The translations under genes were made by a program, and so were the position numbers. The notes below the pieces were generated by a model. The model did not search any database. It saw nothing but the letters and a program-made list of their open reading frames with translations, and was not told the origin of the DNA. This document shows, piece by piece, positions 15,058 to 32,086 of a stretch of DNA of 64,000 nt. Source of the DNA: Promethearchaeota archaeon (lineage in GTDB: Archaea > Asgardarchaeota > Lokiarchaeia > Sigyniarchaeales > SOKP01); the NCBI GenBank assembly GCA_019058445.1, contig JAHPZA010000001.1, forward strand, positions 128,001-192,000, in the 5' to 3' direction. Each line of letters opens with the position of its first letter. Position 1 is the first letter of the stretch.

Positions 15058-17208
15058 ATGGAAACAAAAGATAATGGAAGGTTAAAAATGGTTTTTGTAG
15101 AACAAACGAGTGCACATAAAAAGAAAAGTAAATATCTAAAAAATTTATTACCTAGAGTGTTTAGAACGGAAGGGGATGTGGTTAAGTTTGATCCGTTAAA
15201 AATTGAAAATAGTATCATTAAAGAAACTGGTTTGGATAAAGAAAATGCTGATAGATTAACTGAAATCGTTGTGAGAAGGATCATATCATCAGGAATTCAA
15301 TTTCTCTCAGGACCCCATATTCGAGAAATAGTTTGCTCTGTTCTTTCAGAAGAACACTATGAGGACCAGAGAAAGTTATATACTCGAATTGGAATGCCTT
15401 TAATGGATTATGAAGCTATTTTAGACCAAGGCATAAATGAAAATGCTAATCAAGATATGAATCCTGAGAGTATCCATCACTGGGCTGCAAATCGAATCTC
15501 CGAAGAATATGCGCTTTTAAGGCTTTTAGATTCAGAAGAAGCTAAAGCTCATTTGTATGGTGATATCCATATCCATATGCTAAGATATTTCGATCTTCGT
15601 CCTTTCTGCCAGGAATGGGACCCTCGCATGATTCTCGAGCATGGTTTACCCCCTGTTGAAAGTTGGCCGCATTGTAGTAAATCGGCTCCTGCTGGAAGCT
15701 TGAGAGTGGCTGTAACTCATTTAGCAAAATGGTTAGGCATAATACAAGGGGAATTTTCAGGAGGACAAGGTTATGATTATATTACAACGTTTTTAGCTCC
15801 TTATGCGAGAGGAATTTCTGACAGGGAAATAGAACAATCAATGCAATGCTTAATTTTTGAAACTAACCAAATTTTTGCTGCAAGGGGTGGGCAAGTACCA
15901 TTTACTTCAATATCCTGTACTCCAACAGTACCAGAAGGGTTACTTGATATTTCAGCAATAGGACCTCATGGAAAAATAGTTGGATCTTATGGAGATTATA
16001 AAGATGAATGCCTACAGCTATTTGATGCATTAACGGATGTGTACATTAAAGGAGATCAAAATGGAAAACTTTTTGCTTTTCCAAAACATGAAATAAAAAT
16101 TAAAAAAGAATGGATAAATGATTTCGAACCGTCTTATTTGAAATTGATGGAAGAAGTGGCAACTATGGGTACTCCTTATTTCCTTAATATGTGTCCTGAC
16201 TGGATGCCTGATGAAATACATAGTCAATGTTGTAGAAAATTTCTCAGTGGAAATGAAATCATTAGTAAATGTATCCTTGATCCCGAAAAAAGAAAAGATG
16301 CAAATGTTTGGGAAAATTACGTGACTATTGGCTCTCTTCAAAGTGTAAGCTTAAATCTACCTAGATATGCCTATTTATCTCGAAATGAAGATGATTATTT
16401 GGAAATATTAGATGAAAAAATGGAATTATCTGCTAGAATTTTGATAAAAAAATGGAAGTTAATGGAAAAAAGATTACAATCAGGTCACCTCCCACTGTGC
16501 TGCGGAAAAATAAACGGAAAACCAATTTTTAATATAAACGATCAAAACCTCTCTATAGGTTTTACAGGATTAAATGAAGCCGTTAAAAGTTTAACTGGAG
16601 AAGAACTCCACGAAAGTAAAGATGCGTATAATTTGGGCAAAAAAATATTGGAATTCATGGTCGCAAAATGCAATACAATGACAGAAAGAGATGGATATTC
16701 ATATTCACTCTGGGAACAGCCCGCCGAGAGCAGTTCAGGACGCTTTGCTAAATTGGATTTGAAACATTTTCCTAAAAAAGCAATTCCTCAATCATCTGGT
16801 AAATCTGCTTATTACACAAATTCGGGTCATTTCAGATATGATGCTGATATTCCACTATCAGAAAGAATAAAAAAGCAAGGAGATTATCATCCAATCGTGA
16901 GTGGGGGTGTTATTACTCATATTTTTCTAGGAGAACAAAAACCAGACATAAATGGATTGTGGGAGCTTACAAAAAATATTTGTCTTAACACAAATACGGC
17001 ATATTTTGCATATTCTCCCGATTTTACATACTGTCCGCATTGTCGAAAGATGTTTCGAGGGGGAAGCTTTACCTGTTCTCAGTGTGGATCTCAGGACGCA
17101 AAAGTTTATTCGCGTATTACCGGATATTATAGTGAAGTTAATAGATATAATGCTGGAAAGAGAGCAGAATGGGAAACCCGAAAACGACAAAATATAGTTC
17201 ATATATAA
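15058..17208 (+). CDS. nrdD: Class III (anaerobic) ribonucleoside-triphosphate reductase with ATP cone
   Basis: ATP cone, GDIHIH, QPAES, YYTNS, CxxC...CxxC Zn site and glycyl radical motif YSRITGYY. Confidence 0.96.
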   Translation: METKDNGRLKMVFVEQTSAHKKKSKYLKNLLPRVFRTEGDVVKFDPLKIENSIIKETGLDKENADRLTEIVVRRIISSGIQFLSGPHIREIVCSVLSEEHYEDQRKLYTRIGMPLMDYEAILDQGINENANQDMNPESIHHWAANRISEEYALLRLLDSEEAKAHLYGDIHIHMLRYFDLRPFCQEWDPRMILEHGLPPVESWPHCSKSAPAGSLRVAVTHLAKWLGIIQGEFSGGQGYDYITTFLAPYARGISDREIEQSMQCLIFETNQIFAARGGQVPFTSISCTPTVPEGLLDISAIGPHGKIVGSYGDYKDECLQLFDALTDVYIKGDQNGKLFAFPKHEIKIKKEWINDFEPSYLKLMEEVATMGTPYFLNMCPDWMPDEIHSQCCRKFLSGNEIISKCILDPEKRKDANVWENYVTIGSLQSVSLNLPRYAYLSRNEDDYLEILDEKMELSARILIKKWKLMEKRLQSGHLPLCCGKINGKPIFNINDQNLSIGFTGLNEAVKSLTGEELHESKDAYNLGKKILEFMVAKCNTMTERDGYSYSLWEQPAESSSGRFAKLDLKHFPKKAIPQSSGKSAYYTNSGHFRYDADIPLSERIKKQGDYHPIVSGGVITHIFLGEQKPDINGLWELTKNICLNTNTAYFAYSPDFTYCPHCRKMFRGGSFTCSQCGSQDAKVYSRITGYYSEVNRYNAGKRAEWETRKRQNIVHI

Positions 17209-17457
17209 ATAACAAAATTTTATGCACTCTATCAATTTAAAAATCATTATATTTGAAATATTTGCATCATTAGTGAGAGATTTACTCTAGTTATATAACT
17301 TGAATGAAGATATAAATCCGAAAAAATAATATCAAGCAAATAACGAAAGACATTTTGAGATATTCACTAATAAAATTAATGATGAATTTAGAAAATTATT
17401 TAAGAAACTAAGACCTATGAACATAGGACAAAAGATTAAAGATGAGTAGATTTTTCA

Positions 17458-20400
17458 ATGAAACAAACAGAAAGATCATATTTTTCTTATTCAACAAAAT
17501 TAAAAATTGCTGCATATTGTAATAATACTTGCGCTTTTCCTTCATGTGGTAAAAAAGTTCTTAGTGGGAGGATTAAGGCAGAAGATCTCGAAAATGGATT
17601 TTCTAAAGGTGAATTTGCTCATATAGTTGGTGTATCTCCTCAAGGACCTAGGCGATCTCAAGATGTGTCTCTAGAGAGCATTAATGATGTTTCAAATGGG
17701 ATACTACTATGTGCAGAACACCATGCATTAATAGATGCAAATCCTAATGATTATCCTATAGAAACCTTAAGAAAATGGAAAAGGAATATTGAAGATAATT
17801 ATAAAAATCTTCTGTTTATCAGTGATTATGATTCATGGGATGTTGACATAAATAATTTAATTAAAACTTCTGAATTTATTCAATATTCCGAAGAATTAAA
17901 TAAATTTTTAAATAGTTCTGAGAATCTAATTGTGCACGTAGACGGCGAAATAGGAGTCGGGAAAAAAACTTTTGTAAAATATTGCTTTTCTCAATTACCT
18001 AAAAATCTGCAGAACGAAGTTATTATAATACAATCTAATGATTTTGATCTCTCAAATTTCTCATTGTTTAATAAAATGATTAAATCAAGATTCCTTATTT
18101 TGCTTGAGACTTCTCCAAATTATCTTAAAAAATTAGTTGATAGAATTAAACAAGTTAATCCAACTAGTTATAAAGTCATTTCGATTGGTTCGGGTGAATT
18201 AGTAACTAAAAAAATAAATGGAATTATAAAAAAATATACTTTAAACCGTTTAGATTCGAAAAGTTCAAGGAAATTAATCAGCCAATTAAGCAAAATTATT
18301 TCTCAGAATAATATAAAATATATTTTGGATTTGACAAAAGGAAATCCAGGAATTATTGCATCATTGGTCAAATATAATGAAAGAAAATATGATTTCACAG
18401 ATGATTCCATAATTTCTGAAATTTTCGAGAATTTCAATGAAAGAATTAAAAAAATGGGGATAGAGTTAATTCTAGTTAAAAAAATTATATTAGGTTTCTC
18501 AATCTTCTCTGAATTAGGATGGTATAAAGGATTATATAAGACATTATTTGAGAAAGGAAAATGGAGTTATGAATTTGAAGAGATACCTAACAAATTTTCC
18601 AAGATAATAAATGTTGATCTAGACAAGATTGACATTATTATTACAGAATTACTTGAACTAAAAGTTTTAGAAAGAAAAGGGAGATTTTTAACTTTATCTT
18701 TACCATGTTTATCAGGTCTTTTCATTCGTCAGACACAGGAGGTATTTCTCAAGTATTTTAAGCGAATTATGGATTTACAAGATCCACATTTATTACAAAA
18801 ATTTTTAAAACGATTAAAACAGTTTGCTTATGAAGAAGTCCTAATTTCATCAATTGTTAAGGAAATTCTCGATACTGGGTTATTATCAACTATAGACTGC
18901 CTAAATATTAATTTTTTTTCTACAATCCTCTTAAATCTTGCACAGCTTAATAATAAACTAGTGGCTGACCATCTTGAATTATTATTCAAGCATAAAAATC
19001 CACTAGAATTAAAAGAAATTTTAATCAATCGAAGAAACTTAATAACAGCTCTTGAGCATCTGATATGGTATCCAGAAACATTTAAGACGGGAATGGATAT
19101 TTTAATTAAACTAAGCATAGGTGAAAATGAAGACTGGGCTAATAATGCAACAGGATTAATACCTGAAAAATTTAGAGTATATTTACCTGGAACGTCAGCA
19201 AGTTTAGATTTGAGATTGAATTATTTATCTGAGTTTATTGCTAATTCAACTGAAGAGCATTTTTTTTTGATTCCAATGATTTTCAAATCTATTTTCTATC
19301 TAAATACTAGTTCTAGATTGATATACGCTGAGATACAATCATTTAAGCCAATACCAAAAGAATTCGTACCAAATCCAAAAGAATTGTCAAAGTATTTAAA
19401 TGAAACTTTTAAAATTTTTAAAAATCAATTTGAAAATGAAAAATTTGAAAAAGATGGATTAGAAATCATAAATAATAATTTGAAACTTTTTGTAGAACTA
19501 AACAAGTTTGAAGAAATTAAATCAATATGGAATAAAATAATAAGTAAAGATAGAGATTTTAAAATCAGATTAATAAATTTTTTCGAATATCGATTCAAGA
19601 ATGATACAATCTATCCAGATATTAAAGAGTATATAAACAAATTAAAAGAAGATTTTTCCCTACTTGATTCAATTAAAGAGTTTTCTTGGAAAAGCCCATT
19701 AGATTTTAAAGAAGAAGATATGAAATCCAAATCTCTTGAAGTAAAAAAAGTATTATCTAGTTTAGAAAAGGAAGAAATTCAAGAGATTCTAGAATGGTTA
19801 ATGAAAAATTCTGGTGATTTTGTCATACAAATTGGAATTTTGTTATCATTGGACAAAGATTGGATTGATCAATATGAAGATGTATTAGAAAGCTTTCTAA
19901 AATTAAAGGAAAATAGGGAATTTGATTTCTTTCTTGCGGTCTCTTATAACATTAGAATTAAGGACCAAGAAAGGTGGAGATCTATATTAAAAAAAATTGA
20001 AGCAAATGAAGGACTTTCACATGATTACTTTAGATTGTTAAGAGCAACTCCAATTCTCGATGATTGGGTTGTAAATAAAATAGTTGATTTAGCTGAACAT
20101 GATTTCCTAAATGAAAGTGATTTATATCAATTTTCATGTTTAGAAAATGTAATTGAATTGGATGAAAACTTGTTTAAAAAAATAATGAGAATCTATTATA
20201 ATAGATTTCCTAATGTAATTTCTGTTAAGCCTCAACAATGGAATGATAATTTATTCTTAATAAAACGATATATTGAAAAAAATCCCAATTTTATCAAAAG
20301 AAATGTTGAAGATCTATTAAAAATTCTTTTAAATTTTGAGTGTCATGAAGTTGAGATTGGTGATAAATTTTCAAGCCTTTGGTTAGAAATTATTCTTATA

Positions 20401-21009
20401 ATTATTAAAGAATGTCCGGGAACAATTAAGGAAATAAGAAAAAAAATAATTAGTTTAATTCCTAGCAAATATTTACCAATGGATTTTGACAAAACAACTA
20501 TTAACACTCTATTTATCAATTTTTATGAAATAGAAGCAGAAGATACCTGGGAAGATTTTAAAATTTTATTTAAATCCAAATCAATTGATTATGTAGAGTT
20601 TTATTTCAACCTCTTATTTCTAAAATTAGTGCCTATCAATAAAATTTTAGAATTATGTGAGGAAAATGTAGAAAAAAATCCTTTAATTCTTGTTAAAATT
20701 GTAGGAGAGGATATCCAATCTCAAAAAGGTCAAGATCTTGTTCGTGAAATTTGGTATAACTACTCGAATATTAGCAATCTTTCTTTTGAAATATATTCTA
20801 ATTATACTTCTGGTGTCAAAATATTCTCACCTGGTGAAAGCGCTAAAATTCAAGAATTTCAATTAAAAAGACTTGAGGAGTGGCTTGAAAAAGAAAAAAA
20901 AATGGAAAAAACTAGAGAAAAAATGACGATATTAATAAATGAATTGAAAAGATTAATCTCGAGGGATGAAATACACGCAAAACAGAATGATGAAGAAACA
21001 AAAATTTAG
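17458..21009 (+). CDS. HNH nuclease + STAND-like P-loop domain + long helical sensor region (Avs/NLR-like defence protein)
   Basis: CAFPSC...AHI...GPR...NGILLCAEHHALID HNH; GEIGVGKK degenerate Walker A; KGNP STAND-type helical motif; long alpha-helical C-terminus. Confidence 0.7.
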   Translation: MKQTERSYFSYSTKLKIAAYCNNTCAFPSCGKKVLSGRIKAEDLENGFSKGEFAHIVGVSPQGPRRSQDVSLESINDVSNGILLCAEHHALIDANPNDYPIETLRKWKRNIEDNYKNLLFISDYDSWDVDINNLIKTSEFIQYSEELNKFLNSSENLIVHVDGEIGVGKKTFVKYCFSQLPKNLQNEVIIIQSNDFDLSNFSLFNKMIKSRFLILLETSPNYLKKLVDRIKQVNPTSYKVISIGSGELVTKKINGIIKKYTLNRLDSKSSRKLISQLSKIISQNNIKYILDLTKGNPGIIASLVKYNERKYDFTDDSIISEIFENFNERIKKMGIELILVKKIILGFSIFSELGWYKGLYKTLFEKGKWSYEFEEIPNKFSKIINVDLDKIDIIITELLELKVLERKGRFLTLSLPCLSGLFIRQTQEVFLKYFKRIMDLQDPHLLQKFLKRLKQFAYEEVLISSIVKEILDTGLLSTIDCLNINFFSTILLNLAQLNNKLVADHLELLFKHKNPLELKEILINRRNLITALEHLIWYPETFKTGMDILIKLSIGENEDWANNATGLIPEKFRVYLPGTSASLDLRLNYLSEFIANSTEEHFFLIPMIFKSIFYLNTSSRLIYAEIQSFKPIPKEFVPNPKELSKYLNETFKIFKNQFENEKFEKDGLEIINNNLKLFVELNKFEEIKSIWNKIISKDRDFKIRLINFFEYRFKNDTIYPDIKEYINKLKEDFSLLDSIKEFSWKSPLDFKEEDMKSKSLEVKKVLSSLEKEEIQEILEWLMKNSGDFVIQIGILLSLDKDWIDQYEDVLESFLKLKENREFDFFLAVSYNIRIKDQERWRSILKKIEANEGLSHDYFRLLRATPILDDWVVNKIVDLAEHDFLNESDLYQFSCLENVIELDENLFKKIMRIYYNRFPNVISVKPQQWNDNLFLIKRYIEKNPNFIKRNVEDLLKILLNFECHEVEIGDKFSSLWLEIILIIIKECPGTIKEIRKKIISLIPSKYLPMDFDKTTINTLFINFYEIEAEDTWEDFKILFKSKSIDYVEFYFNLLFLKLVPINKILELCEENVEKNPLILVKIVGEDIQSQKGQDLVREIWYNYSNISNLSFEIYSNYTSGVKIFSPGESAKIQEFQLKRLEEWLEKEKKMEKTREKMTILINELKRLISRDEIHAKQNDEETKI

Positions 21010-22261
21010 CGAATTGATTCCAAAATTCGATAATTGTTATATTCCTTTTAGATCAAACCTTGAAATTAAGATAGATCAAATTCATTTTAGAAAAAAAGGA
21101 CAAGATGAATGGTCATATTTTTCTAAATTATTCAGTTATGAAGATGATTATAATCATATAGTTGAAATTAATAACGAAATTGATGAAAATCTAATAATTA
21201 TCTACTATAAATCACTTGATCCTATAAAGTTTTCGTCAGAATTTGTCCAACTTCGAGTTATTATAAATAATGAGATTTATAGATGTATGTGCTCAATAGA
21301 ATGGATAAAAATTGAAGATGATTTACTTCCAAAGATCGTAATTAATTCAAATTTAGGATTTAAAAAGGAAAGAATTACCTGCCTATGTCTAAAATTAAAC
21401 GACAATTGTTTGAAATTCCTTAAACAATTTAACCAATTAATTGAAACTCAAAATATTACAGATTTGACTGATATTCGTGGAATTAATATTAAAAATTATG
21501 ATATCGCAATTGTAAATATCAAATTCTTAGATGATATAAATTTATACTTGAGATTTCTAAAGAATATTGGACAAATATACATCTCTGATGACATTGGAAA
21601 ATTATCAGAAAATTGTCTCAATATCAACAAACACAATTCATCTTATTCCTTTCATTATCGTATATCTGAATTTTTAAAAATAAAATGTTTAAACATTGAG
21701 AAAAATGATAAAGTCGATTTTTGGGAACAAAATAAAGATGAATCCGAGAGATTTTGGCAAAAATACTTACAAAAGCATACTGATATCTTTTCCTCTGCTC
21801 TAAACTATACTATGGAATTTATCTGTGATGAAGGATCTGTAAGAGGGCAAGATATATATGGAAAGGGAGAAAAAAGAATAGATTTTCTATATAAAGGAAA
21901 TGATAATAATGCTATTCTAATCGAAATAAAAGGACCAAAAACTCAATTAATTATGAATATGGAATATCGTGAAGGAATATATCCTCCCACAACTGATTTA
22001 TCAGCTTCAGTCCTTCAGGTAATGGATTATAAGAAAATACTAATCGAAAATTATAATGAAATTAAAAAAAGATGTGATTGTGATGGTTTAAAGACAGACA
22101 TCATTAAATGTTATGTTATAATTGGAAACTTAGAAGATTTAAAAGAGGAACAAGAAAAAAGTTTTTCTTATTTTAAAGAAGTCGTAAACCCATATGTGGA
22201 GATAATCACCTTTGATGATCTTTTTGATAAATATAAAAAAAGCTATTTAATGGTCATTTAA
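20966..22261 (+). CDS. sduA: Shedu anti-phage nuclease SduA (DUF4263) with unknown N-terminal domain (start possibly TTG at 21014)
   Basis: C-terminal ERFWQKYL...IDFL...IEIKGP...YR...LSASVLQV...VIIG...IITFDDL. Confidence 0.8.
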   Translation: MKYTQNRMMKKQKFSELIPKFDNCYIPFRSNLEIKIDQIHFRKKGQDEWSYFSKLFSYEDDYNHIVEINNEIDENLIIIYYKSLDPIKFSSEFVQLRVIINNEIYRCMCSIEWIKIEDDLLPKIVINSNLGFKKERITCLCLKLNDNCLKFLKQFNQLIETQNITDLTDIRGINIKNYDIAIVNIKFLDDINLYLRFLKNIGQIYISDDIGKLSENCLNINKHNSSYSFHYRISEFLKIKCLNIEKNDKVDFWEQNKDESERFWQKYLQKHTDIFSSALNYTMEFICDEGSVRGQDIYGKGEKRIDFLYKGNDNNAILIEIKGPKTQLIMNMEYREGIYPPTTDLSASVLQVMDYKKILIENYNEIKKRCDCDGLKTDIIKCYVIIGNLEDLKEEQEKSFSYFKEVVNPYVEIITFDDLFDKYKKSYLMVI

Positions 22262-22323
22262 TTACAAATTATCTTTTTGGATTATGGAAAATATATAAAA
22301 ATGAGTTTGGAATACTTAAAAAT

Positions 22324-24222
22324 TTATTTATTGTCTTTTATGAAAGTTTGAAGATCTATAAAGAAATTGAAATTATCGCTTGTAATATTAGTTTTAAGTG
22401 TTTCTACTTCTTTATAAGTAACTGTCTCTGCTTCAGTATTATTTCTTTTCTTACAAACAAATTTCCCATCTTCCTGTTCTACAAGAATTGGTTCCCTTGT
22501 TTGCTTAATAGCAACAATCAAAATGATTTTTTCTATATCGAAATCATCTATCAATTTTATCTCTTTACATTTAATAAAATCCTTTTTTGGTTCTGTAAAT
22601 TTCCTTAATACTTTCTTAATTTGTTTAATTTTTTCCTCTAATCCATCAATTCCGACAATCTTTTTTGGATCATCATCTGTAATACCAATAATTAATAAGC
22701 CACCATCATAATTGGCAAAACTTGTTACTTGATTGCAGAATTTAATTTTAGCCCTCTTTTTTTCTGATTTGCTGGATTTTTCCCAAAAGTCAAGTGTTTG
22801 CTTAAAGTCCCATAAATCATTTTCAATGCGGTTAGGTTCTATAGCTTTTTTTATAAAAAGAATTAAAGCTTCTTCATTATATAAAAAGGTTTGTTGCAGT
22901 CTATATTTGTTAATATCTAAATCTAATTCTTCATAAATTTCTTCAAAATCTTCTTCAAGAATTTTGTTCACAATGGATTTAGTGTTTTCTTTTTGAATTA
23001 AATATACAGAGCATTCCTCTTCATTTTCGTATAAAAATTCTCTAGAATGCGTAGTTATAAAAATCTGATTAGATTTTGATTCTTGAAGGAATTTATCCCT
23101 TAACTTAATTTCTAATCCAGGATGTAAATGAAGCCCAGGTTCTTCTATACATAGTATATTATCTTGCCCAATTTCCATGATATAAGCAATAAAGTGTGCT
23201 ATGTTAAGTATACCAGCACCCATATTGTCCAAATTCAATTCTATGTTTAAATCATTTTCTTTTAAAATTAATATAGTATAATCATTTTCGATCACTTCTT
23301 GCCTTAGTATATCAATTTCAGGAATAAATTCTAATAATTGCTTATTAAGTTTTGAGTTCCAATCATGTTCATTGGTAACCAATTTCTTATATATTATAGT
23401 AACTAAATTACTTCCTACCGGATCCAGACTTAAGCGAGTGGCCCCTGAGGTCTCAGCCCTTGGATTAAATCTACGTTTATCTGGAATAATATGGATATTT
23501 TCAAAAAATTTAATTAATTCTTTAGCTATAAATGGAATAGGGGGATAATTTTCAAGATTCAAATGTTCTTCTAAAATTTGTTTTATATATCGAATTCCAC
23601 CAGTTCTTATATTTGCAAAATAATTTTTTAGAAATACTCTATCAATTGAAACATTTTGTTTTTGAATAGCTTTAGGATTATATACTGAGTTTTGAAAATT
23701 ATCATTATCAAGTCTTTTAAAATGGAACAAATCTTGATAGTTATTATCCATATGTAAAATTTGAATTCTTTCAATATATAAAGCCTTTCCAATATCGTAC
23801 TTTTTCAAAAAAATTTTAATTTTATTGAAATATTCATTTGATTTAAGCCAGTCTAAAGCGACTTTTGTGTCATTCCAATTAAATTCTTGAAATTTTGGAT
23901 CATTTTTCCTTGTATAATCAAAAACTCTATTTAAAAAATTTCGAGTGATAAGTTCCAATATAATTTTATTTCTAAACTCTGATGTTAGGGAAAAAATTAG
24001 ATTAAGTTCTAATGGTAGTGTTTCGTCTCCATCATAATATTGTTCTCTATTTACTTTTCTTTCTGAATAAGAATCTTGGAGTATCTTAAATATTTTAAAT
24101 AAATTTGATTTACCTGAACTATTTTTTCCTATTATAACATTGTAATCTTTAAAATCCTCAAATTTAGCATCTTTATAACTCAAGAAATTTTTGATTTCTA
24201 TTCCTGAAAGCTTAATATTCAA
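22324..24222 (-). CDS. ABC-type ATPase (AAA_15/OLD-like) fused to a C-terminal Schlafen AlbA_2 domain
   Basis: GKNSSGKS, MGAG signature, IEEPGLHLHP, ITTHS; C-terminal ENDLWDFKQ...SFANYDGGLLIIGITD...IVGI. Confidence 0.8.
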   Translation of the reverse strand: MNIKLSGIEIKNFLSYKDAKFEDFKDYNVIIGKNSSGKSNLFKIFKILQDSYSERKVNREQYYDGDETLPLELNLIFSLTSEFRNKIILELITRNFLNRVFDYTRKNDPKFQEFNWNDTKVALDWLKSNEYFNKIKIFLKKYDIGKALYIERIQILHMDNNYQDLFHFKRLDNDNFQNSVYNPKAIQKQNVSIDRVFLKNYFANIRTGGIRYIKQILEEHLNLENYPPIPFIAKELIKFFENIHIIPDKRRFNPRAETSGATRLSLDPVGSNLVTIIYKKLVTNEHDWNSKLNKQLLEFIPEIDILRQEVIENDYTILILKENDLNIELNLDNMGAGILNIAHFIAYIMEIGQDNILCIEEPGLHLHPGLEIKLRDKFLQESKSNQIFITTHSREFLYENEEECSVYLIQKENTKSIVNKILEEDFEEIYEELDLDINKYRLQQTFLYNEEALILFIKKAIEPNRIENDLWDFKQTLDFWEKSSKSEKKRAKIKFCNQVTSFANYDGGLLIIGITDDDPKKIVGIDGLEEKIKQIKKVLRKFTEPKKDFIKCKEIKLIDDFDIEKIILIVAIKQTREPILVEQEDGKFVCKKRNNTEAETVTYKEVETLKTNITSDNFNFFIDLQTFIKDNK

Positions 24223-24648
24223 ATCTCCTTTCCCCCTTAATAATGATTTAAGACTCTTCTGATATTCTTTAGCAAAATATAATATTTATTCTCTTTGGTA
24301 AATTAGAAATTATAGAATAATAATTTAATAATATTAATTAAAAAGTAAAAATAAAGAGAGTCTAATTATTTTTTACAATTCATTAAACACAATTTTACAA
24401 ATTTTGAAGCAGATCTTCATTCTTTTAAATCTTAATATAATTCTAAATTATTGAATTCAATATTTTCGTATATACTAGAACTATAATTTCAATTTTTATC
24501 AATACTCATGTATAGTAATCCTTAAGGTTAGTATTTAATTATGAATATAAATATAAAGCTATCAAATAGTTATAGATTACTAGTATATATTTAAATTCAC
24601 TTAATTACAAATAATTTTATATATTAATACATAAAAAAAGATTTTTTA

Positions 24649-26190
24649 ATGATAAAAATGAACGAGGCAAGCGTTATTGTACCAAAAAGTGAAATTAGTG
24701 ACGATTTCTTAATTAAGAATTACTGTAAGCTCATTAAAAAAGGGGAGATTGAATTTCTAGAGAAAATGGATAGTTTTGACATATATGATAAGAATTATGA
24801 AGAATTAAAGGATGAGTCTAACTATATAAAAATTGATACTAAGAATCTTGTTAATATTTTAAATGATCTCACTATAGAAGATAAAAAAGAAGAAGAAAAA
24901 GTAAAGATTCTGAAAAAGAAAAAAATAATATTTCAGAAACTATGGCCGAATTTTGTAAGGAGTGCTATTAAATATCTAAGAATAAAAGATACTCGAGATA
25001 AAGGTACCTTTAAATTTGATTTTGGAGTCAACAATTTAACAAAATATTTTGAAGAATTCTCAAAATTTGAAGAAATTCTTTATGGAATTGACGAATACTA
25101 TCGAGATCATTCCCTACATGTTTTTAGAGTGTATCTTTTAGGAGTATATTTAGTAAGAAAATTTTTTAAAGATTATGATCAATTGAAGATTAAAAATAAA
25201 CCTTCTATAATCGGTAAAATCTTTTCTGATGAAAAAGAAGCGATTTGGTGCGTTATAGCATTATGTCATGATTTAGGATATCCATTACAGAAATTAGATG
25301 AATTAAATAAAAAACTTGTTAAAATACTCGAATTTTTTGGTACTTCAAATTTTAATCCTTTAAGATTTAGCTTACCTCTTGAAGGAACAATCTTAGACAA
25401 ATTTATTTTAAAATTAATTTCGTCAAGAATCAATGACAACTTATTGATTCAACATCAACCTAAATTTTATGCAAAATACTCTAAGGCTTATGAAAAATTG
25501 AGCCATGGAATAATGTCTTGTATCTTATTAATGAAAAATTTAGTATATTTTAAAGAAACAGATTATGAACCTGATTTCCAAAAAGGTTTTAAATATATTA
25601 AAGAGCCTTCTACAAATAGCAACGATTTTGATGAAAGAACTTTAGAGGATGCAAGACAATATGTAATTAGAAGAGAAATACTACGATCAATTGCTTCCCA
25701 TGATAACGAAGATATTTATCATATAGAAATGAATAATTTTCCCTTTTTATTGATAATGTGTGATGAAATCCAGGAATGGAGCCGACCTGCTTCAAAAATA
25801 AGACTACTATATGCCTTAGATGAAAAAAATAGAGAGATAATTAATATCAATGCTTTTAATGAAAATATAATAGATATCTTAATAAATTTAAATTTTGATG
25901 AAAATGATTTATTAAATTATGTTGCAAAGAAATATATGAAATTTATTCGATTATTGAGAAGTGCTGTAGATTCAGATAAACGGAAATTTAATTTTATAAT
26001 GTCGATACAAAATAGGGAAGGCATAAAATACCAGTTTATTTATGAAAGTCCTAATGAATTCTATACTGATGAAGAAAAGAAAAAAATGGAAATCTCGTAT
26101 GAAGAACCAAAATGTATAAAATTTATAAATGAAAAACCAATAGAAGATTTCTCATTAAGGAATATTATTGATTTAATAAATAAAAAATGA
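24649..26190 (+). CDS. HD-superfamily metal-dependent phosphohydrolase
   Basis: RDHSLHVFRV, CHDLG, SHG, SHD and CDEIQEWSR metal-ligand motifs. Confidence 0.75.
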   Translation: MIKMNEASVIVPKSEISDDFLIKNYCKLIKKGEIEFLEKMDSFDIYDKNYEELKDESNYIKIDTKNLVNILNDLTIEDKKEEEKVKILKKKKIIFQKLWPNFVRSAIKYLRIKDTRDKGTFKFDFGVNNLTKYFEEFSKFEEILYGIDEYYRDHSLHVFRVYLLGVYLVRKFFKDYDQLKIKNKPSIIGKIFSDEKEAIWCVIALCHDLGYPLQKLDELNKKLVKILEFFGTSNFNPLRFSLPLEGTILDKFILKLISSRINDNLLIQHQPKFYAKYSKAYEKLSHGIMSCILLMKNLVYFKETDYEPDFQKGFKYIKEPSTNSNDFDERTLEDARQYVIRREILRSIASHDNEDIYHIEMNNFPFLLIMCDEIQEWSRPASKIRLLYALDEKNREIININAFNENIIDILINLNFDENDLLNYVAKKYMKFIRLLRSAVDSDKRKFNFIMSIQNREGIKYQFIYESPNEFYTDEEKKKMEISYEEPKCIKFINEKPIEDFSLRNIIDLINKK

Positions 26191-26750
26191 CAGTAAATGA
26201 TTATACTGATATAAAAACTATTGAAATTAAGAAAAGGGATTTAATATTTTCTAAAAAAACTCGTTTGTGGTGTAGATTACCATATCCAAATCATCCTTAT
26301 GGATGTCCAAATTATAATAAAAATCCATTATGTCCCCCTTTTGCCGATTACATGGATTATATTAAAAAAAAATATTCTCATTTTTATTTAATTTATGCTA
26401 TTTTTAAATTAAAAAGTCAAAGAGAAAGAATGCTTTCAATCCATCCAAATTGGTCAATAAAAAAAGCTAATTGTTTGTTATATTGGCAGGGTTCTGTAAA
26501 AAAAGTCTTAAAAAACTATATTCAAAGGATTATACTAAAAAATAAAAATAGAAAAACCTATATTTTAGCATGTGGTTCTGGATTTAAATTTAGTAGTATT
26601 CATCAAAATAAAGTCTATAGTATGGAAGCTGTAGGAATAAATGTATTAAAAACTTTAGATAATGTGGGAATAGAATACGAACTTAAACCTAAGAATAAAG
26701 TATTACTAGTTACACTATTATGTTCTCAAGAGTACCTTTTATTTTTTTAA
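26187..26750 (+). CDS. DUF2284-like predicted metal-binding protein
   Basis: WC...GCPNYNKNPLCPP and SMEAVGINV motifs; ATGA overlap with the HD gene. Confidence 0.7.
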   Translation: MTVNDYTDIKTIEIKKRDLIFSKKTRLWCRLPYPNHPYGCPNYNKNPLCPPFADYMDYIKKKYSHFYLIYAIFKLKSQRERMLSIHPNWSIKKANCLLYWQGSVKKVLKNYIQRIILKNKNRKTYILACGSGFKFSSIHQNKVYSMEAVGINVLKTLDNVGIEYELKPKNKVLLVTLLCSQEYLLFF

Positions 26751-27771
26751 ATTCTTCAGGTATATAATCTTTAGTTAAATCTATTTGTTTAATGTTATTG
26801 CATACTAATTTTTGAATTGGACAAATTTCATTACATATTTTTCTTTCTAAACAATATCCACATTTTAGATTTTCTTTAAAATGCTGTAATTCTATATCTA
26901 ATAACCTATTAGAAATAACTTTTCGAAGCGAATTTTTATCATTCAGTTTCACGAAGCAATTTGAAATATTTTTAAAAGCAGTACAAGGAAATAATTTAAG
27001 ATCAGATGTAATCATAAATTTATTTTTTCCAGCTTCACACTTAAAACAAGAATTACTAAGGTTAGAAAATGCCGATCCTATTTCGACTTTAGAGGAAGGA
27101 TAATTTAATTTCACATTATTTAAAATGATAGCTAGATCTTCTTTGCTAAATACTAATTTCTCATGATTTTTTAAAGCCCTACCATGTAATATAAGGCGAA
27201 GTATCTTGACATGTTTAATATTTAGCTCATTTATTAAATATTCTATTGTATCTTCAAGGTATTTAATATTTAAACAATTAGGGATGATATGAACTTCAGT
27301 ATTGATATTTAAATCTATACATGATTTAATTGAAGTTATAGTATTTTCAAAACCAAATGTGGTTTTTGTTAATTTAGCAAAATTTTCTTTATCAATGGTT
27401 TGAAAATTATATCTTATTGTCAAATTAGGATGATTTTTATATCTCATTAAGATATTTTTAGGAATAGGCAAATACTCCCTATCTTTATAAATACATCCAC
27501 AAGAGTAAATTTCCAGCAAAAAATCACAATTTAGAATATAATCAATAAATTCTATAATGTTTGGATGAAGAAATGGTTCTCCTCCTGATAATTGGATAAT
27601 ATCAAGACCAAGTTTTTTAGCATCTTGAATAAGTTCGATAAATTTCTTTTTTTCTATATATTTCTTCTTATAGATGGTTGAATCACTAGAACAAAAAATA
27701 CAATTAAAAGGACATTTGTTAGTTATTTCAATCAACAATTCTTTTTTCTTTTTCAATTTTGCTTTCCTCAA
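26710..27771 (-). CDS. Radical SAM/SPASM domain protein
   Basis: CPFNCIFC, SGGEPF, and SPASM cysteines CEAG...FPC...CGYCLERKICNEICP. Confidence 0.9.
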   Translation of the reverse strand: MRKAKLKKKKELLIEITNKCPFNCIFCSSDSTIYKKKYIEKKKFIELIQDAKKLGLDIIQLSGGEPFLHPNIIEFIDYILNCDFLLEIYSCGCIYKDREYLPIPKNILMRYKNHPNLTIRYNFQTIDKENFAKLTKTTFGFENTITSIKSCIDLNINTEVHIIPNCLNIKYLEDTIEYLINELNIKHVKILRLILHGRALKNHEKLVFSKEDLAIILNNVKLNYPSSKVEIGSAFSNLSNSCFKCEAGKNKFMITSDLKLFPCTAFKNISNCFVKLNDKNSLRKVISNRLLDIELQHFKENLKCGYCLERKICNEICPIQKLVCNNIKQIDLTKDYIPEEFKKIKGTLENIIV

Positions 27772-28065
27772 CGATTCAATTCTAATATTGACTTAGATAC
27801 TTTTAATCTTTTTCTATATAAAAAAATAAAAATATCTTGGTTTTTTCTCATCATCTCCTAAACTTGTTTAACTCTATATTATGCTTAAATATTAGAAATA
27901 TTTTAAATCTTTTAGCTTTTCTCATTTAAAATATATTTCTTAAAAATATTTAAAATTATTGGCAATGAAATTATTCGAAATTTAATAAAATCTCATTTAA
28001 TTAATAAGATTTTGATTTCAATTTAACTTATAATAAAAAAATAGATTTAACCGACAAATTTATAT

Positions 28066-28093
28066 TATTCTCTTTTCTTAAGAATTGAGAATA
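28066..28093. promoter_or_regulatory. 28 bp near-perfect palindrome, putative operator of the adjacent wHTH gene
   Basis: TATTCTC-TT-TTCTTAAGAA-TT-GAGAATA directly after a TATA-like TTTATA, ~35 bp upstream of 28128. Confidence 0.45.
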
Positions 28094-28127
28094 TTTAAAA
28101 ATGCTTGTTTATAATTTAATTATGTAG

Positions 28128-28454
28128 ATGATTGCCCTTGAAAAAGAGATAATTATTATAAATTTTTTAAATGAGAAAGCTATAAATTTATTATATATTC
28201 TAGCTAAAAAATATCCAATAACTAGCGTTAATTTGAGGAATAAGGTTATTAAAAATGAAATAATGTCTATAAGTTCTTACTATAGGTATCTGGATTTCCT
28301 TTTGAAACATAAACTGATAAAAAAAGAAAAATATAGAAAGAAGACAGGGGGTTATATTTATAATATAAGTAATTTTGGTAAGTATTTCCTAGAATTAATT
28401 TTAAAATCAAACATTCCTTTTTATAATAATCTAAATCATGATCTAAACTCATAA
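28128..28454 (+). CDS. Winged helix-turn-helix transcriptional regulator
   Basis: MSISSYYRYLDFLLKHKLI...YNISNFG wHTH pattern; divergent from the radical SAM gene. Confidence 0.7.
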   Translation: MIALEKEIIIINFLNEKAINLLYILAKKYPITSVNLRNKVIKNEIMSISSYYRYLDFLLKHKLIKKEKYRKKTGGYIYNISNFGKYFLELILKSNIPFYNNLNHDLNS

Positions 28455-28498
28455 ACTTATAGAATAGCGGATTTTTATTTAAAAAATTTAAAGTGTTT

Positions 28499-28940
28499 AA
28501 TTCCTCAATCTTCTGATAATTAGGCTTACTATACAAATTCAAGTTATTTCAGATATGATGCTGAGATTTTACATTCAGAAAGGATTAAAAAACAAGGAGA
28601 TTACCATTCTATTATAAGTGGTTGAGTAATTATTCATAAAAGCTTAGGCGAGCAAAAATCAGACATACAAGGATTATGAGAATTAACTAAAAATATTTGC
28701 CATAATAATAACACAGCATATTATGCCTACACTACAGATTTCACTTATCACCCTTATTGAAGAAGAATCTTTCGAGGGGACAGTTTTACCTTTTAAGAAT
28801 GTGGTGCTCAAGATGCCAGAATTTACTCCAGAATTACTGGCTATTATAATGAAGTAAATAAATATAATGAGGGAAATAGAGCAGGATGGGAAGCCTGTAA
28901 AAGAGATTATATCAACGTATTACAGAGATTAAAAAAATAA
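28499..28940 (+). pseudogene. nrdD: Displaced, decayed 3' fragment of nrdD
   Basis: Frame from 28500 reads IPQSSDN*AYYTNSSYFRYDAE...QGDYH...YSRITGYYNEVNKYN...; collinear with the nrdD C-terminus; 5 internal stops, no frameshift. Confidence 0.93.
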
Positions 28941-28959: not shown

Positions 28960-31164
28960 CTAATTTTTAATATAGATTTGTCCTATTCCTGATGTAAAGA
29001 TTTCATAGAATGGAACTGTTAAATCATAAATATTATTATTTTCATTATTAAATTCTATAGATTTTACTTTAGTGAAAGTATTTTTAGCAAATTTCATCCA
29101 TAACTTCTCAACAACAGGAGTATTATATTTCTTTTTTATAAGAAAACTCAATGTATCTAATAATTTTCCTTCAGATATATTCATTGTACTATTCTTTTGA
29201 GCACATCTCGCTGCGATATATGGAATTTTTCCTTTTTCAGATAACATTCTAAGAGATATAGCATAATTCTCTTTTAATTCTACATTCATTTTTTTCATCC
29301 ATGGATTTAAATCGATGACTGGTTCTATATCCCTCCCAAAATGTCCAATTTCTGGAATAGATGGAATAAACTTCCTTAATATAGATAGATTTCTTTTTCC
29401 TTTTATTTCTAAATGATAAGCATTATACCAACTAGGATGTTCTACATTATCAAATTCTCGTTTCCTAATATAAGATGAAATCCCTAAGCGTTTTAATAAA
29501 AAACTCAAACCAAAAACTAATTTGCGTGAAGATGTGTAAAAACTCACTAAAACATCTCTTCGTGGTGAGCCTTCACGTGTATATACTACTTCAGATCCGT
29601 CTCCTTCTAAATAAGCAGCGATAAAACCTTTCACACATTCAATGGGAGCATTATATAGAAATGAAGGAATTTCCTTAAACGGTGCTTTTTCAAGTTTTAA
29701 TCCTAATCCCGTTGAAAACATAGATTTAATTAGAATGGAATTACTATTGACGCTATATACAGTGTTATAATCCGCTTTATCATGTGTAGCAATATAAGGT
29801 GTATATCCAAAATTCCTTTCTATAAGAAATGCTACTTTTTCCATCTCAGTTTTATTATTTCCACAAGTGAACGTAATATGTTTCATAGAACCTTCGGAGC
29901 AGTAATGCCCTAAGATATATCCAACCTCGAAATTTTTCTCAACAAATCTAAAGGCTTTTGTTAATGCATTTTTAACATACTCAATGCCTTTCTCCACAAT
30001 AATTTCTCCACAATTACTAAAGTCTAAGGGGGAATCGTCTTCATTAACATCGATGACTCGAGGCATTAGAATTGGAGTTCCTTCTTTAACGTTTTCTGCT
30101 GTAATTTGGATTATATTAAGATTTTCATCAACAGAAAGTAGCTTATGTTGTTTTGATAACGATAATATCCCATGCTTCAATGTTAAATTTAATGAAAAAT
30201 CTCTATACTTTTTTTTAATTCCTTCAATGGGGATTTTTTTTAATTCAAAATTCTCGTCCAATCCAAAGATATAAGAGTTTTTATAATTTTCTATTTCTTT
30301 AATTTCTATTAGATTATATGAATTTGTATTTAAATCGAACAATAGAACGAGCTCGTTTTGCTGCATTTTAGAAAAAAGATTCTCTTCAATGGGGGTTCGT
30401 TCCTTCTCATACACATCATTAATTCGCTGAAGTTTATCTTCTTGGATAATTTCTTCATCAAAGAATACTTGATTATTTATTTCTTTTTCTTTAATATTCA
30501 CACTCGTTTCTAATCCAAAAAATTGGATTAAATCTTTTCGAATTACTTTTTCGAGGTTAAATAATCCCTCCTCAGTATCAATTTGACTCATTATTTTAAA
30601 TATTATTTCTATTATCCAACACAAGTAGACAAAAAAAGCCTTGCGGTATTTCTTGTTTTTTTTAATTTTCCTTTGGTATATTTTTAGTTCTGAGAGGAAT
30701 CCACTGTAGTTAGCATTTTCGAGATATTTCAAAATATTTAATATTGGTTTTTTAGTTATAATTGGAGTCAAATGAGCTTCAATTCTTTTAATTAGTTCAA
30801 TGGTTAGTTCCATTTGTGAAATCGGCGTGTTTACTTCTCTCTCAAATTTTTTTAATTTAACATAACTCATTCGAGCAATAAATAGAAGATAAGTATCCTT
30901 AAATCGTTGTGAAAATTCTGGATCGTAAATAATAAGCTCTAAGGCACTATTCAACTTATCATTATTATTTTTTTTATAAATTAATTGAACTTTATCAATA
31001 GTTTCAATCGAATAATTCTTAAAGTCAATTTTTTTGCCACATTCTGAGCAGAATATGAATTTTAAATCAATATTAGCAATATTTAAAATTGTATTCACTG
31101 TAATTAACATGCCACATTCTGGACAGTAAATATGTGTTTGTTTAAGTTTGTCTTTGCTTTTCAT
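28960..31164 (-). CDS. Zn-ribbon protein fused to an intein-derived Hint + LAGLIDADG homing endonuclease (no C-extein)
   Basis: CPECG/CSECG; intein-like blocks SKQH, AENVKEGTPILMPR, LGHYCSEGS, FIAAYLEGDGS, YDLTV; ends IYIKN-stop. Confidence 0.8.
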   Translation of the reverse strand: MKSKDKLKQTHIYCPECGMLITVNTILNIANIDLKFIFCSECGKKIDFKNYSIETIDKVQLIYKKNNNDKLNSALELIIYDPEFSQRFKDTYLLFIARMSYVKLKKFEREVNTPISQMELTIELIKRIEAHLTPIITKKPILNILKYLENANYSGFLSELKIYQRKIKKNKKYRKAFFVYLCWIIEIIFKIMSQIDTEEGLFNLEKVIRKDLIQFFGLETSVNIKEKEINNQVFFDEEIIQEDKLQRINDVYEKERTPIEENLFSKMQQNELVLLFDLNTNSYNLIEIKEIENYKNSYIFGLDENFELKKIPIEGIKKKYRDFSLNLTLKHGILSLSKQHKLLSVDENLNIIQITAENVKEGTPILMPRVIDVNEDDSPLDFSNCGEIIVEKGIEYVKNALTKAFRFVEKNFEVGYILGHYCSEGSMKHITFTCGNNKTEMEKVAFLIERNFGYTPYIATHDKADYNTVYSVNSNSILIKSMFSTGLGLKLEKAPFKEIPSFLYNAPIECVKGFIAAYLEGDGSEVVYTREGSPRRDVLVSFYTSSRKLVFGLSFLLKRLGISSYIRKREFDNVEHPSWYNAYHLEIKGKRNLSILRKFIPSIPEIGHFGRDIEPVIDLNPWMKKMNVELKENYAISLRMLSEKGKIPYIAARCAQKNSTMNISEGKLLDTLSFLIKKKYNTPVVEKLWMKFAKNTFTKVKSIEFNNENNNIYDLTVPFYEIFTSGIGQIYIKN

Positions 31165-31339: not shown

Positions 31340-32086
31340 ATGCGAATTGGCGGAATAATTGATATTTCTACAAAAGATATTCCAAATAAAGCATGCATGG
31401 TTATCTTTACTAATGGGTGTAATTTTAATTGCGAATTTTGTCATAACAAACATTTATTACAAAATAATCGCGGTAAAATTATAAAAGTAGAAGAGTTAAT
31501 GAAACTAATAAATAATAACCTACTAGTTAATAGTTTAAGTATCACAGGGGGCGAACCGACGCTTCAGGAGGATTTAGTAGAGTTATGTAGAGAAATCACT
31601 AAGTTAGGGAAATATCTAAGTATAGATACTAACGGTTCTAGACCTGAAATCATTCAAAAAGTTATTCCATATATTAATAGAATTGCTTTAGATATAAAAG
31701 CACCGTTAAAGCAACATCAATTAGAGAGAGTTGCTAGAAAAAGTATAGACCCTACGTTAATTACTCAGACATTTCTTATGCTAAATACCAGTAAGACTAT
31801 TGATTTTGAAATTAGGACCACTTATGCTGAAAACTTATTGACACCAGGGGATATTCATGAGATAATTTTCTTTCTTAAGGAGCATAATTTTAGAGGCAAT
31901 TATGTCTTACAACAATATAACTATTCTGAGGGGGTGGGTAAAGAGTTTAGAAATAAGTTTCATAAGCCGTCGCATCTTTCTTTAGTCAATATTCTTGGTT
32001 CTTATAAAAATCGCAATGTACCTTTTGAAATTTATTTAAGAGATGATATTGTTGGGTATTGCATGCTTAAAGAAATATTTAATTAA
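31340..32086 (+). CDS. nrdG: Anaerobic ribonucleotide reductase activating radical SAM protein
   Basis: FTNGCNFNCEFCHN, ITGGEPTLQ, IDTNGS, LDIKAP, EIRTT; near nrdD. Confidence 0.9.
   Translation: MRIGGIIDISTKDIPNKACMVIFTNGCNFNCEFCHNKHLLQNNRGKIIKVEELMKLINNNLLVNSLSITGGEPTLQEDLVELCREITKLGKYLSIDTNGSRPEIIQKVIPYINRIALDIKAPLKQHQLERVARKSIDPTLITQTFLMLNTSKTIDFEIRTTYAENLLTPGDIHEIIFFLKEHNFRGNYVLQQYNYSEGVGKEFRNKFHKPSHLSLVNILGSYKNRNVPFEIYLRDDIVGYCMLKEIFN

Follow-up and report, generated by a model that had tools for sequence, protein, structure and literature searches.

An Asgard archaeal protein that joins an ABC ATPase with a single-lobe Schlafen domain: a candidate single-gene, tRNA-directed defence protein

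Schlafen tRNases are common to human innate immunity and, as was shown in 2026, to bacterial phage defence; the main question about their mechanism is what holds these nucleases inactive and what then turns them on. Here we consider a gene that raises this question in an Asgard archaeon. It lies at 22324..24222, on the minus strand, of a 64,000-nucleotide stretch of a Promethearchaeota genome (assembly GCA_019058445.1, contig JAHPZA010000001.1, positions 128,001 to 192,000), hereafter called the window, and its product joins an ATP-binding cassette (ABC) ATPase to a Schlafen (AlbA_2) domain. An earlier note, made from the letters of the window alone, had proposed a single-gene, tRNA-cleaving immune system. 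Does the gene encode such a system? The explanation that accounts best for the evidence overall, and that we regard as probable, is that its product is a stand-alone, ATP-controlled antiviral protein that would act by cutting tRNA.

According to the ORF list and the translation, the gene is one uninterrupted open reading frame (ORF) of 632 codons plus stop, and Pfam assigns AAA_15, AAA_21 and SLFN_AlbA_2 to its product (P0001). The start codon is a TTG at 24222. Read from this codon, the N-terminus matches up position by position with the N-termini of homologues that begin with Met, and a purine-rich, Shine-Dalgarno-like run read in the sequence, GGGGGAAAGGAG, lies directly upstream (24225..24236, minus strand); together, these two features rule out alternative start codons. 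The fusion gene is present in a single copy in its own genome. The host named in the earlier note, an Asgard archaeon, is borne out by NrdD of the window genome, which is 80–91% identical to NrdD of many Promethearchaeota metagenome-assembled genomes (MAGs).

Each ATPase motif that had been quoted as evidence for a complete ABC set is found in the translation, namely GKNSSGKS (residues 32–39), MGAG (334–337), IEEPGLHLHP (359–368) and TTHS (390–393), and so are the Schlafen stretches ENDLWDFK (467–474) and SFANYDGGLLIIG (501–513). Pfam matches AAA_15 over residues 4–396 (4.4e-24), AAA_21 (7.2e-19) and SLFN_AlbA_2 (PF04326) over residues 468–597 (3.2e-13; 50.7 bits versus a cut-off of 25.3). AlphaFold2 (AF2), supplied with the family alignment, models the full-length protein with a predicted local distance difference test (pLDDT) of 89.4 and a predicted template modelling score (pTM) of 0.74, and the C-terminal module (436–632) with a pLDDT of 92.5 and a pTM of 0.89. 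Invariance of the motif residues in 56 homologues, together with the confidence of the AF2 models, shows that the fusion protein is not a product of chance.

The single-lobe Schlafen domain spans residues 466–632 (22327..22827, minus strand) and is defined by Pfam, a PDB profile, Foldseek and VIA-align. When the C-terminal module was compared with known structures by Foldseek, only AlbA_2/Schlafen-type chains were returned at E<1e-3, with a probability of 1.0 for 3lmm (DIP2311), the SAMD9 tRNase/DNA-binding domain (9o0d, 7ksp) and SLFN13, 11, 14, 12 and 5. VIA-align against representatives gave Z scores of 11.4 for 3lmm, 9.8 for 2kyy, 9.3 for SAMD9 (7ksp) and 7.8 for SLFN11 and SLFN12; Schlafen-type matches as a whole ranged from 7.5 to 11.4, compared to 4.3 for the next unrelated chain and 3–4 for Alba chains. 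The part of SLFN11 that aligns with the module (184–341) is the catalytic C-lobe, and the sequence profile of the module likewise matches the C-lobes of SLFN13, 11, 12 and 14, with E values from 6e-6 to 2e-3. Thus, the profile searches and structure prediction that had been proposed as a check place the C-terminal domain in the AlbA_2/Schlafen fold.

The active site points in the same direction. Prokaryotic and mammalian Schlafens share a signature consisting of an Ex4(E/D)xK motif, a SAFAN box, a Gly/hydrophobic core and a metal-binding acidic triad, and Ex4(E/D)xK is needed for tRNA cleavage by both prokaryotic and human enzymes (PMC13056530; 10.64898/2026.05.29.728809). The window protein fits this signature exactly. 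E467-x4-D472-x-K474 (22801..22824, minus strand), identified from the alignment of 56 members and the published motif, corresponds to Ex4(E/D)xK; SFAN (501–504)-x2-GG and the Gly/hydrophobic core are contained in SFANYDGGLLIIGITD (501–516); and D516 (22675–22677, minus strand) is the third acidic residue by alignment. In the sequence profile the SFANYDGGLLIIGITD stretch aligns to FANTxGGYLxxGVDD of the SLFN13/11/12 C-lobes, such that D516 (GITD, versus GVDD in the mammalian proteins) falls on the third catalytic Asp. Across the 56 members, E467 and D472 are invariant and K474 is present in 55; W471, N504, G507, G508, G513, P519, E529, Q574, R593 and K610 are invariant as well. By every sequence and fold comparison made, then, the protein is a member of the prokaryotic Schlafen effector class, and the acidic, catalytic-type residues that the earlier note had seen in a C-terminal AlbA_2 domain are there.

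The remainder of the protein, residues 1–435 (22918..24222, minus strand), is an ABC ATPase module resembling those of OLD, GajA and PtuA, as judged by Pfam, PADLOC, invariant motifs and Foldseek. Its motifs, read in the sequence and placed by alignment, all lie within this interval: Walker A (G32–S39), signature (M334–G337), Walker B/catalytic (E360–E361) and H-loop (T390–S393). G32, G37, K38, S39, E361, P362, T391, H392 and S393 are invariant across the 56 members, and from its sequence the ATPase looks catalytically competent. With the full-length model, the top Foldseek matches were GajA, the retron Eco8 effector, PtuA, Thermus OLD (6p74), Rad50 and SMC heads, and the PADLOC matches (HEC-01A, AriA, NsnB, Old, AbiLi, GajA and mad3) are confined to the ATPase part. 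The most variable stretch of the ATPase insert, residues 131–235 (23518..23832, minus strand), is β-rich in the secondary structure of the model and is the least conserved part of the protein in the alignment, with a mean majority-residue fraction of 0.37 compared to 0.65–0.69 for the two segments of the ATPase head. This insert may be a sensor or a dimerisation surface.

The earlier note had placed AlbA_2 at the position where OLD and GajA proteins carry TOPRIM, and this statement holds within a single ATPase lineage. Ranking directly below the family are ∼800-aa proteins from Asgard MAGs that share the ATPase (∼37% identity over 68% of the query, E 1e-66 to 1e-75) and have a C-terminus not shared with the Schlafen fusion. 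That C-terminus carries VEGxxD at its beginning and DLDRGNE ∼55 residues later, the Glu and DxD signatures of TOPRIM; of 10 members, 9 gave Pfam matches below threshold to DUF3226 and 8 to OLD-like_TOPRIM. In a quick IQ-TREE phylogeny of the ATPase only, Schlafen-fused, TOPRIM-like-fused and short forms group in a single clade (SH-aLRT 99) from which other OLD/AAA_15 proteins are excluded. Since one ATPase clade bears either Schlafen or TOPRIM-like C-termini, it follows that nuclease modules have been exchanged on one ATPase chassis.

The Schlafen module also occurs outside this fusion. A two-helix linker, residues 436–465 (22828..22917, minus strand; helices 437–448 and 450–460 in the AF2 model), moves with the Schlafen domain as one module, a profile that includes it being matched in proteins that lack the ATPase. 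An exhaustive profile search with the module yielded 152 representatives at E≤1e-30. Apart from the ∼630-aa ABC fusions, these are most often ∼430–460-aa proteins with a conserved, unrelated ∼250-aa N-terminal domain that has no Pfam family, found in Methanosarcinales, Acidobacteriota, Chloroflexota and Promethearchaeota. To judge from these sequences, the Schlafen module itself is mobile between N-terminal partners. The E, D and K of the motif are invariant in 63 proteins that bear the module on a different N-terminus. Such conservation, near-invariant in the ABC fusions and invariant with other N-termini, favours a working nuclease over a mere binding domain, and we consider the domain likely to be nuclease-active.

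The genomic setting of the gene is relevant to its role. It is carried by an inserted island of low G+C content (16782..28913, no strand assigned), delimited by base composition, tblastn of NrdD, 12-mer positions and an empty site in a relative. The G+C fraction is 0.23–0.27 in the island versus 0.31–0.35 in the flanks, and the 12-mer AATTCCTCAATC occurs at 16782 and 28499, marking both junctions. The 3′ end of nrdD is duplicated, at 16782–17208 and 28371–28913. In tblastn with NrdD the second copy, the last ∼190 codons, forms the far border of the island; it is ∼58% identical at the protein level and riddled with in-frame stops. In the closest relative (L157, NrdD 91% identical), 54 bp lie between nrdD and homologues of the window genes beginning at 31340, whereas 14.1 kb separate nrdD from these genes in the window. 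The uninterrupted arrangement in L157, which lacks the island, identifies the island as an insertion into the nrdD 3′ end. No integrase was seen in the island of the window.

No neighbour is conserved across the loci of seven homologues, in line with the claim of a single-gene system. Among the neighbours at these loci are a tyrosine integrase accompanied by numerous small unannotated ORFs, HEPN (Hypoth_Ymh), another AAA_15 protein, leucine-rich repeat (LRR) proteins, a type I restriction–modification (R–M) operon with GIY-YIG and DUF4062-LRR genes, and a DpnII-type endonuclease. In the window, the 3′ end of the gene converges on Shedu sduA (PADLOC, 1e-39), and the divergent neighbour, a 513-aa ORF, belongs to no Pfam family. 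A match at E≤1e-30 is seen in just 2 of 40 related genomes, in one case to a TOPRIM-type form and in the other to a split form. This mobile, variable genomic setting is typical of defence genes, and we consider a defence function likely.

How might the ATPase control the nuclease? ABC ATPases of the Rad50/SMC/OLD class dimerise head to head upon ATP binding, and in OLD-class relatives the ATPase cycle is coupled to a nuclease, either fused or bound; the Foldseek matches of the full-length model include structures of GajA, PtuAB and retron Eco8. The three prokaryotic Schlafens characterised, RorSlfn5, CbCash and RzAgo, are latent and all cleave tRNA once activated, the trigger being a phage protein, cA4, or guide-target pairing together with ATP (PMC13056530; PMC13462974; 10.64898/2026.05.29.728809). 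In RzAgo, ATP binding by the fused ATPase leads to oligomerisation, and two single-lobe SLFN domains form a bilobal horseshoe nuclease like that of mammals (10.64898/2026.05.29.728809). Given the RzAgo precedent, head dimerisation in ABC ATPases and nuclease coupling in the OLD class, we propose that ATP-dependent head engagement controls Schlafen pairing. The protein would be latent in uninfected cells. An infection cue would act on the ATPase, possibly via the variable insert or a change of nucleotide state, and would alter ATP-dependent head engagement such that two Schlafen domains are brought together. The paired single-lobe domains would rebuild a two-lobed Schlafen nuclease, which would cut tRNA and stop translation, giving an abortive-infection-type outcome. 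Dimerisation-type gating is, in our estimate, nearly evenly balanced, with a slight lean against it. Somewhat more tentative is the combined scenario, in which an Asgard OLD-family ATPase lineage swapped a DNA-cutting TOPRIM for an RNA-cutting Schlafen and ABC head dimerisation assembles the bilobal tRNase. A two-copy complex prediction of the isolated Schlafen module returned a score of 0.00, which gives no verdict and counts neither way.

Several observations weigh against a stand-alone, tRNA-cutting antiviral protein, some of them concerning its history and setting. No full-length relative was found in IMG/VR viral contigs, which gave distant ATPase-only matches alone. The branching order at the base of the ATPase clade is not resolved, and we make no claim as to the direction, donor or order of exchange. 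A crude PADLOC measure showed no clear separation between neighbours of the family and random regions. The 107 ORFs flanking 12 homologues matched 267 models, including type I MTase (1e-149), fused AriAB (1e-141), mad2/3/5 (MADS) and Aga REase, and the 89 ORFs of seven random 18-kb regions of the same genome matched 121, including IIG R–M, IetA, Old and GajA-like models. As the random control is also rich in matches, we claim no statistical enrichment of defence neighbours, and for the earlier note's own refuting condition, enrichment in defence islands, the backing is qualitative.

Other observations of this kind concern what the Schlafen domain does. The architecture and the defence role could both stand with a substrate other than tRNA (rRNA, mRNA, ssDNA or viral DNA), the DNA-directed logic of OLD/TOPRIM being kept. 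Consistent with this idea, the closest ATPase relatives bear a TOPRIM-like, DNase-type domain, the AlbA_2 domain of SAMD9 was crystallised with DNA and deposited as a DNA-binding domain (7ksp), and SLFN14 entries among the structural matches are bound to dsRNA or nucleic acid; the computed data define no substrate. However, SAMD9 AlbA_2 is itself deposited as a tRNase (9o0d), Ex4(D/E)xK is the tRNase motif, and tRNA is cleaved by all three prokaryotic Schlafens that have been characterised biochemically. We therefore think another substrate unlikely, and the analysis favours tRNA as the main substrate by a modest margin.

A second possibility, which we judge quite improbable, is that AlbA_2 is a non-catalytic, nucleic-acid-binding sensor and that the protein is an ATP-dependent clamp or regulator, or needs an unlinked effector. 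Some AlbA_2/Schlafen domains do bind nucleic acid without cleavage; 7ksp, one of the structural matches, was deposited as a DNA-binding domain of SAMD9 together with DNA, and human SLFN5 is not known to have RNase activity. The closest structural matches of the module, 3lmm and 2kyy, are bacterial AlbA_2 proteins of unknown function and not proven RNases. Moreover, the position of D516 is Asp in 45 of 56 relatives and Asn in the other 11, so the third acidic residue may be nonessential or, on the sequence evidence, some family members may be inactive. Set against these points, the E, D and K positions are conserved in ABC-fused members and in those with other N-termini, a pattern that fits selection on catalysis; the loci offer no conserved neighbour able to serve as effector; and in the sister clade a nuclease-type domain occupies the same position. 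The weakest alternative, one we find barely credible, is a housekeeping ATPase of DNA repair or chromosome maintenance, Rad50/RecF/SMC-like and with an Alba-like DNA-binding tail: the N-terminal P-loop has weak SMC_N, RecF and Rad50 matches, and Alba-fold proteins, here seen at low Z in VIA-align, are chromatin proteins in archaea, but the gene is in a single copy, in an insertion missing from the closest relative, with a match in so few related genomes, its neighbours differ between loci and are often restriction or Abi-type genes, and it clusters with the OLD/GajA/PtuA defence ATPases.

The stand-alone antiviral protein thus remains our preferred reading, and we turn to how the family is distributed. 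Among 5.8 billion proteins searched, ∼75 clusters have the same length (∼620–650 aa) and Pfam architecture, at 34–75% identity. The named members all come from Lokiarchaeia/Promethearchaeota MAGs, and in species-representative genomes the full-length form is almost confined to Promethearchaeota. A full-length member that is 38% identical lies on a 9.8-kb contig (L010:7795-9699) of a MAG labelled Candidatus Anoxychlamydiales; this copy may reflect cross-domain transfer or a binning error. In the split lineage, identical in two assemblies, TAA-ATG stands directly before the conserved linker Met (…FIGK*MEDNRIE…), yielding a 459-aa ATPase gene and a 173-aa Schlafen gene (L207:4001-5902; L208, G012:C134, 1039-2937). 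It may be a genuine two-gene version or the result of a nonsense mutation. At a further locus (L206:4001-9446), an ATPase-only member of the same clade (P0062, 481 aa) precedes two unannotated genes, of 118 and 429 aa, and an nSTAND3 gene, with a DEAD/Helicase_C_2 gene adjoining, and this may be a third effector arrangement on the same ATPase chassis. An ESM Atlas fold search returned ATPase clusters only. By features, the nearest ESM Atlas cluster was a bacterial (Bacillota) 424-aa family of 233 members that combines PF04326 with PF13304 (AAA_21) and PF00005 (ABC_tran), with a score of 0.91; this lead suggests that other, shorter ABC–Schlafen fusions may exist in Bacillota.

The ∼250-aa N-terminal domain found on the shorter Schlafen proteins is marked by the motifs FGxEV…DEIxWW and YRVWGSTRxxDR (examples P0132, P0134 and P0125, with ∼60 other representatives; loci L014:9230-10588, L016:3120-4496 and L026:9167-10603), and it may be an uncharacterised sensor domain. 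The island itself holds further genes. A 1183-aa gene with an N-terminal HNH domain (PADLOC PDC-M68A / CBASS-effector-like HNH) and a PD-Lambda-4_A-like middle lies together with sduA at 17458–22261 (plus strand). It overlaps the sduA start by 44 nt, and the N-terminal ∼250 aa of sduA are unannotated; the two may form a two-gene unit, unlike classical single-gene Shedu. At 24649–27771, the 513-aa ORF, matched by no model of Pfam, PADLOC or NCBIfam, forms a coupled pair with a DUF2284 gene, and a radical SAM gene (weak pVip-like PADLOC match, 7e-11) converges on them. Together they make up an enzymatic module, so far unexplained, of the island that carries the fusion gene. A 734-aa gene with Intein_splicing and LAGLIDADG_3 matches, at 28960–31164 (minus strand), stands between the nrdD remnant and the downstream genes that are conserved. 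Since a homologue of it (51% identical) also follows nrdD in another Promethearchaeota MAG (L119), the nrdD spot is a recurrent insertion site.

What does this locus add? The family couples a Schlafen nuclease with a switch of another and well-studied kind, the ABC ATPase of OLD/Gabija type, and its natural TOPRIM-like and Schlafen sisters provide a ready comparison of one ATPase chassis controlling unrelated effectors. With it, Schlafen-based immunity reaches into the Asgard archaea, which among prokaryotes are the closest relatives of eukaryotes. As the domain is structurally closer to bacterial AlbA_2 than to mammalian SLFNs, the data give no particular support to a direct Asgard origin of eukaryotic Schlafens. 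The main value lies in these two points, the natural pairing of TOPRIM and Schlafen forms on a shared ATPase chassis and the Asgard extension of Schlafen immunity. If both the exchange and the ABC-driven pairing are true, ATP-driven pairing would be a general, convergently evolved Schlafen switch, and the TOPRIM/Schlafen sisters would allow a direct test of how an OLD-type ATPase gates unrelated nucleases.

How does the window protein compare with known systems? It is not Gabija, PARIS, PrrC or RloC, because in each case it lacks either the partner gene or the type of nuclease. For Gabija, no UvrD-like gajB adjoins the window gene and no helicase is conserved beside its homologues. For PARIS, matches to AriA models are confined to the ATPase part, and no neighbour resembles AriB (DUF4435/TOPRIM). 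For PrrC and RloC, Pfam gives SLFN_AlbA_2 alone in the C-terminal part, and neither Pfam nor PADLOC matches an anticodon-nuclease domain. PARIS, PrrC and RloC do all share their logic with our proposal: during infection, a nuclease directed at tRNA is under the control of an ABC-type ATPase. In PARIS, however, a separate TOPRIM protein, AriB, is released from an AriA scaffold, and PrrC and RloC carry a different C-terminal, anticodon-nuclease domain. The OLD family (P2 Old, Thermus OLD 6p74, GajA and the retron Eco8 effector) is alike in having the same ABC fold and motifs, with an insert, and a C-terminal nuclease in one chain. The window protein has a Schlafen domain in place of TOPRIM, to which Pfam finds no match, and no GajB/UvrD-type helicase or retron partner adjoins it; lacking TOPRIM, it does not strictly qualify as an OLD-family nuclease. 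In TrlF-TrlG (temperature restriction locus; PMC7554251), an ATPase-type protein likewise occurs with an AlbA_2 protein at mobile, R–M-linked loci. That system, though, consists of two genes, TrlG (AlbA_2 plus HATPase_c_4) and the PHP-domain protein TrlF, and its ATPase and Schlafen lineages differ from those of the window protein.

The best precedent for gating is the SLFN-pAgo 'Schlatpase' (RzAgo; 10.64898/2026.05.29.728809), which also fuses an ATPase to a single-lobe Schlafen. Its ATPase is of the GHKL type, lies C-terminal to SLFN and works with an Argonaute sensor, whereas that of the window protein is ABC (Rad50/OLD-like), lies N-terminal to SLFN and is found with no Ago and no known guide. 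Nearest in kind are the prokaryotic Schlafens (pSlfn; RorSlfn5 and EcoSlfn7, Perez Taboada et al. 2026, PMC13056530; CbCash, PMC13462974), which were established in 2026 as tRNA-cleaving defence effectors, with ∼55 fusion architectures (PMC13056530). They resemble</replace><year></year><why>c, note on part of paper</why></edit>
<edit><find>The partners given there are HisKinase/GHKL,</find><replace>The partners listed in the main texts of these papers are HisKinase/GHKL, the window protein in carrying a single-lobe SLFN_AlbA_2 with Ex4(E/D)xK fused to a presumed sensor or regulator, in their location in defence islands and in tRNA cleavage as the expected output. The partners given there are HisKinase/GHKL, helix-turn-helix, Ig-like, DUF262, DUF5929, TBP-like, Csx15 and methyltransferase, compared to an OLD-type ABC ATPase (AAA_15/AAA_21) here; an ABC/AAA_15 partner is not named in the main text of either paper (PMC13056530, PMC13462974). 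The window protein differs further in its host, an Asgard archaeon. The literature searched contained no paper that combines AlbA_2/Schlafen with AAA_15/AAA_21, and neither PADLOC nor NCBIfam has a model covering the fusion; no NCBIfam model scored above its cut-off, and the sub-threshold P-loop matches were to MAD3, retron Eco8 and RecF only. The earlier description of an architecture without a name stands, within the literature searched, as regards the fusion, but not as regards its kind. Because prokaryotic Schlafens are now established effectors, the protein is best seen as a variant of the established Schlafen class, not as a wholly unrecognised system.

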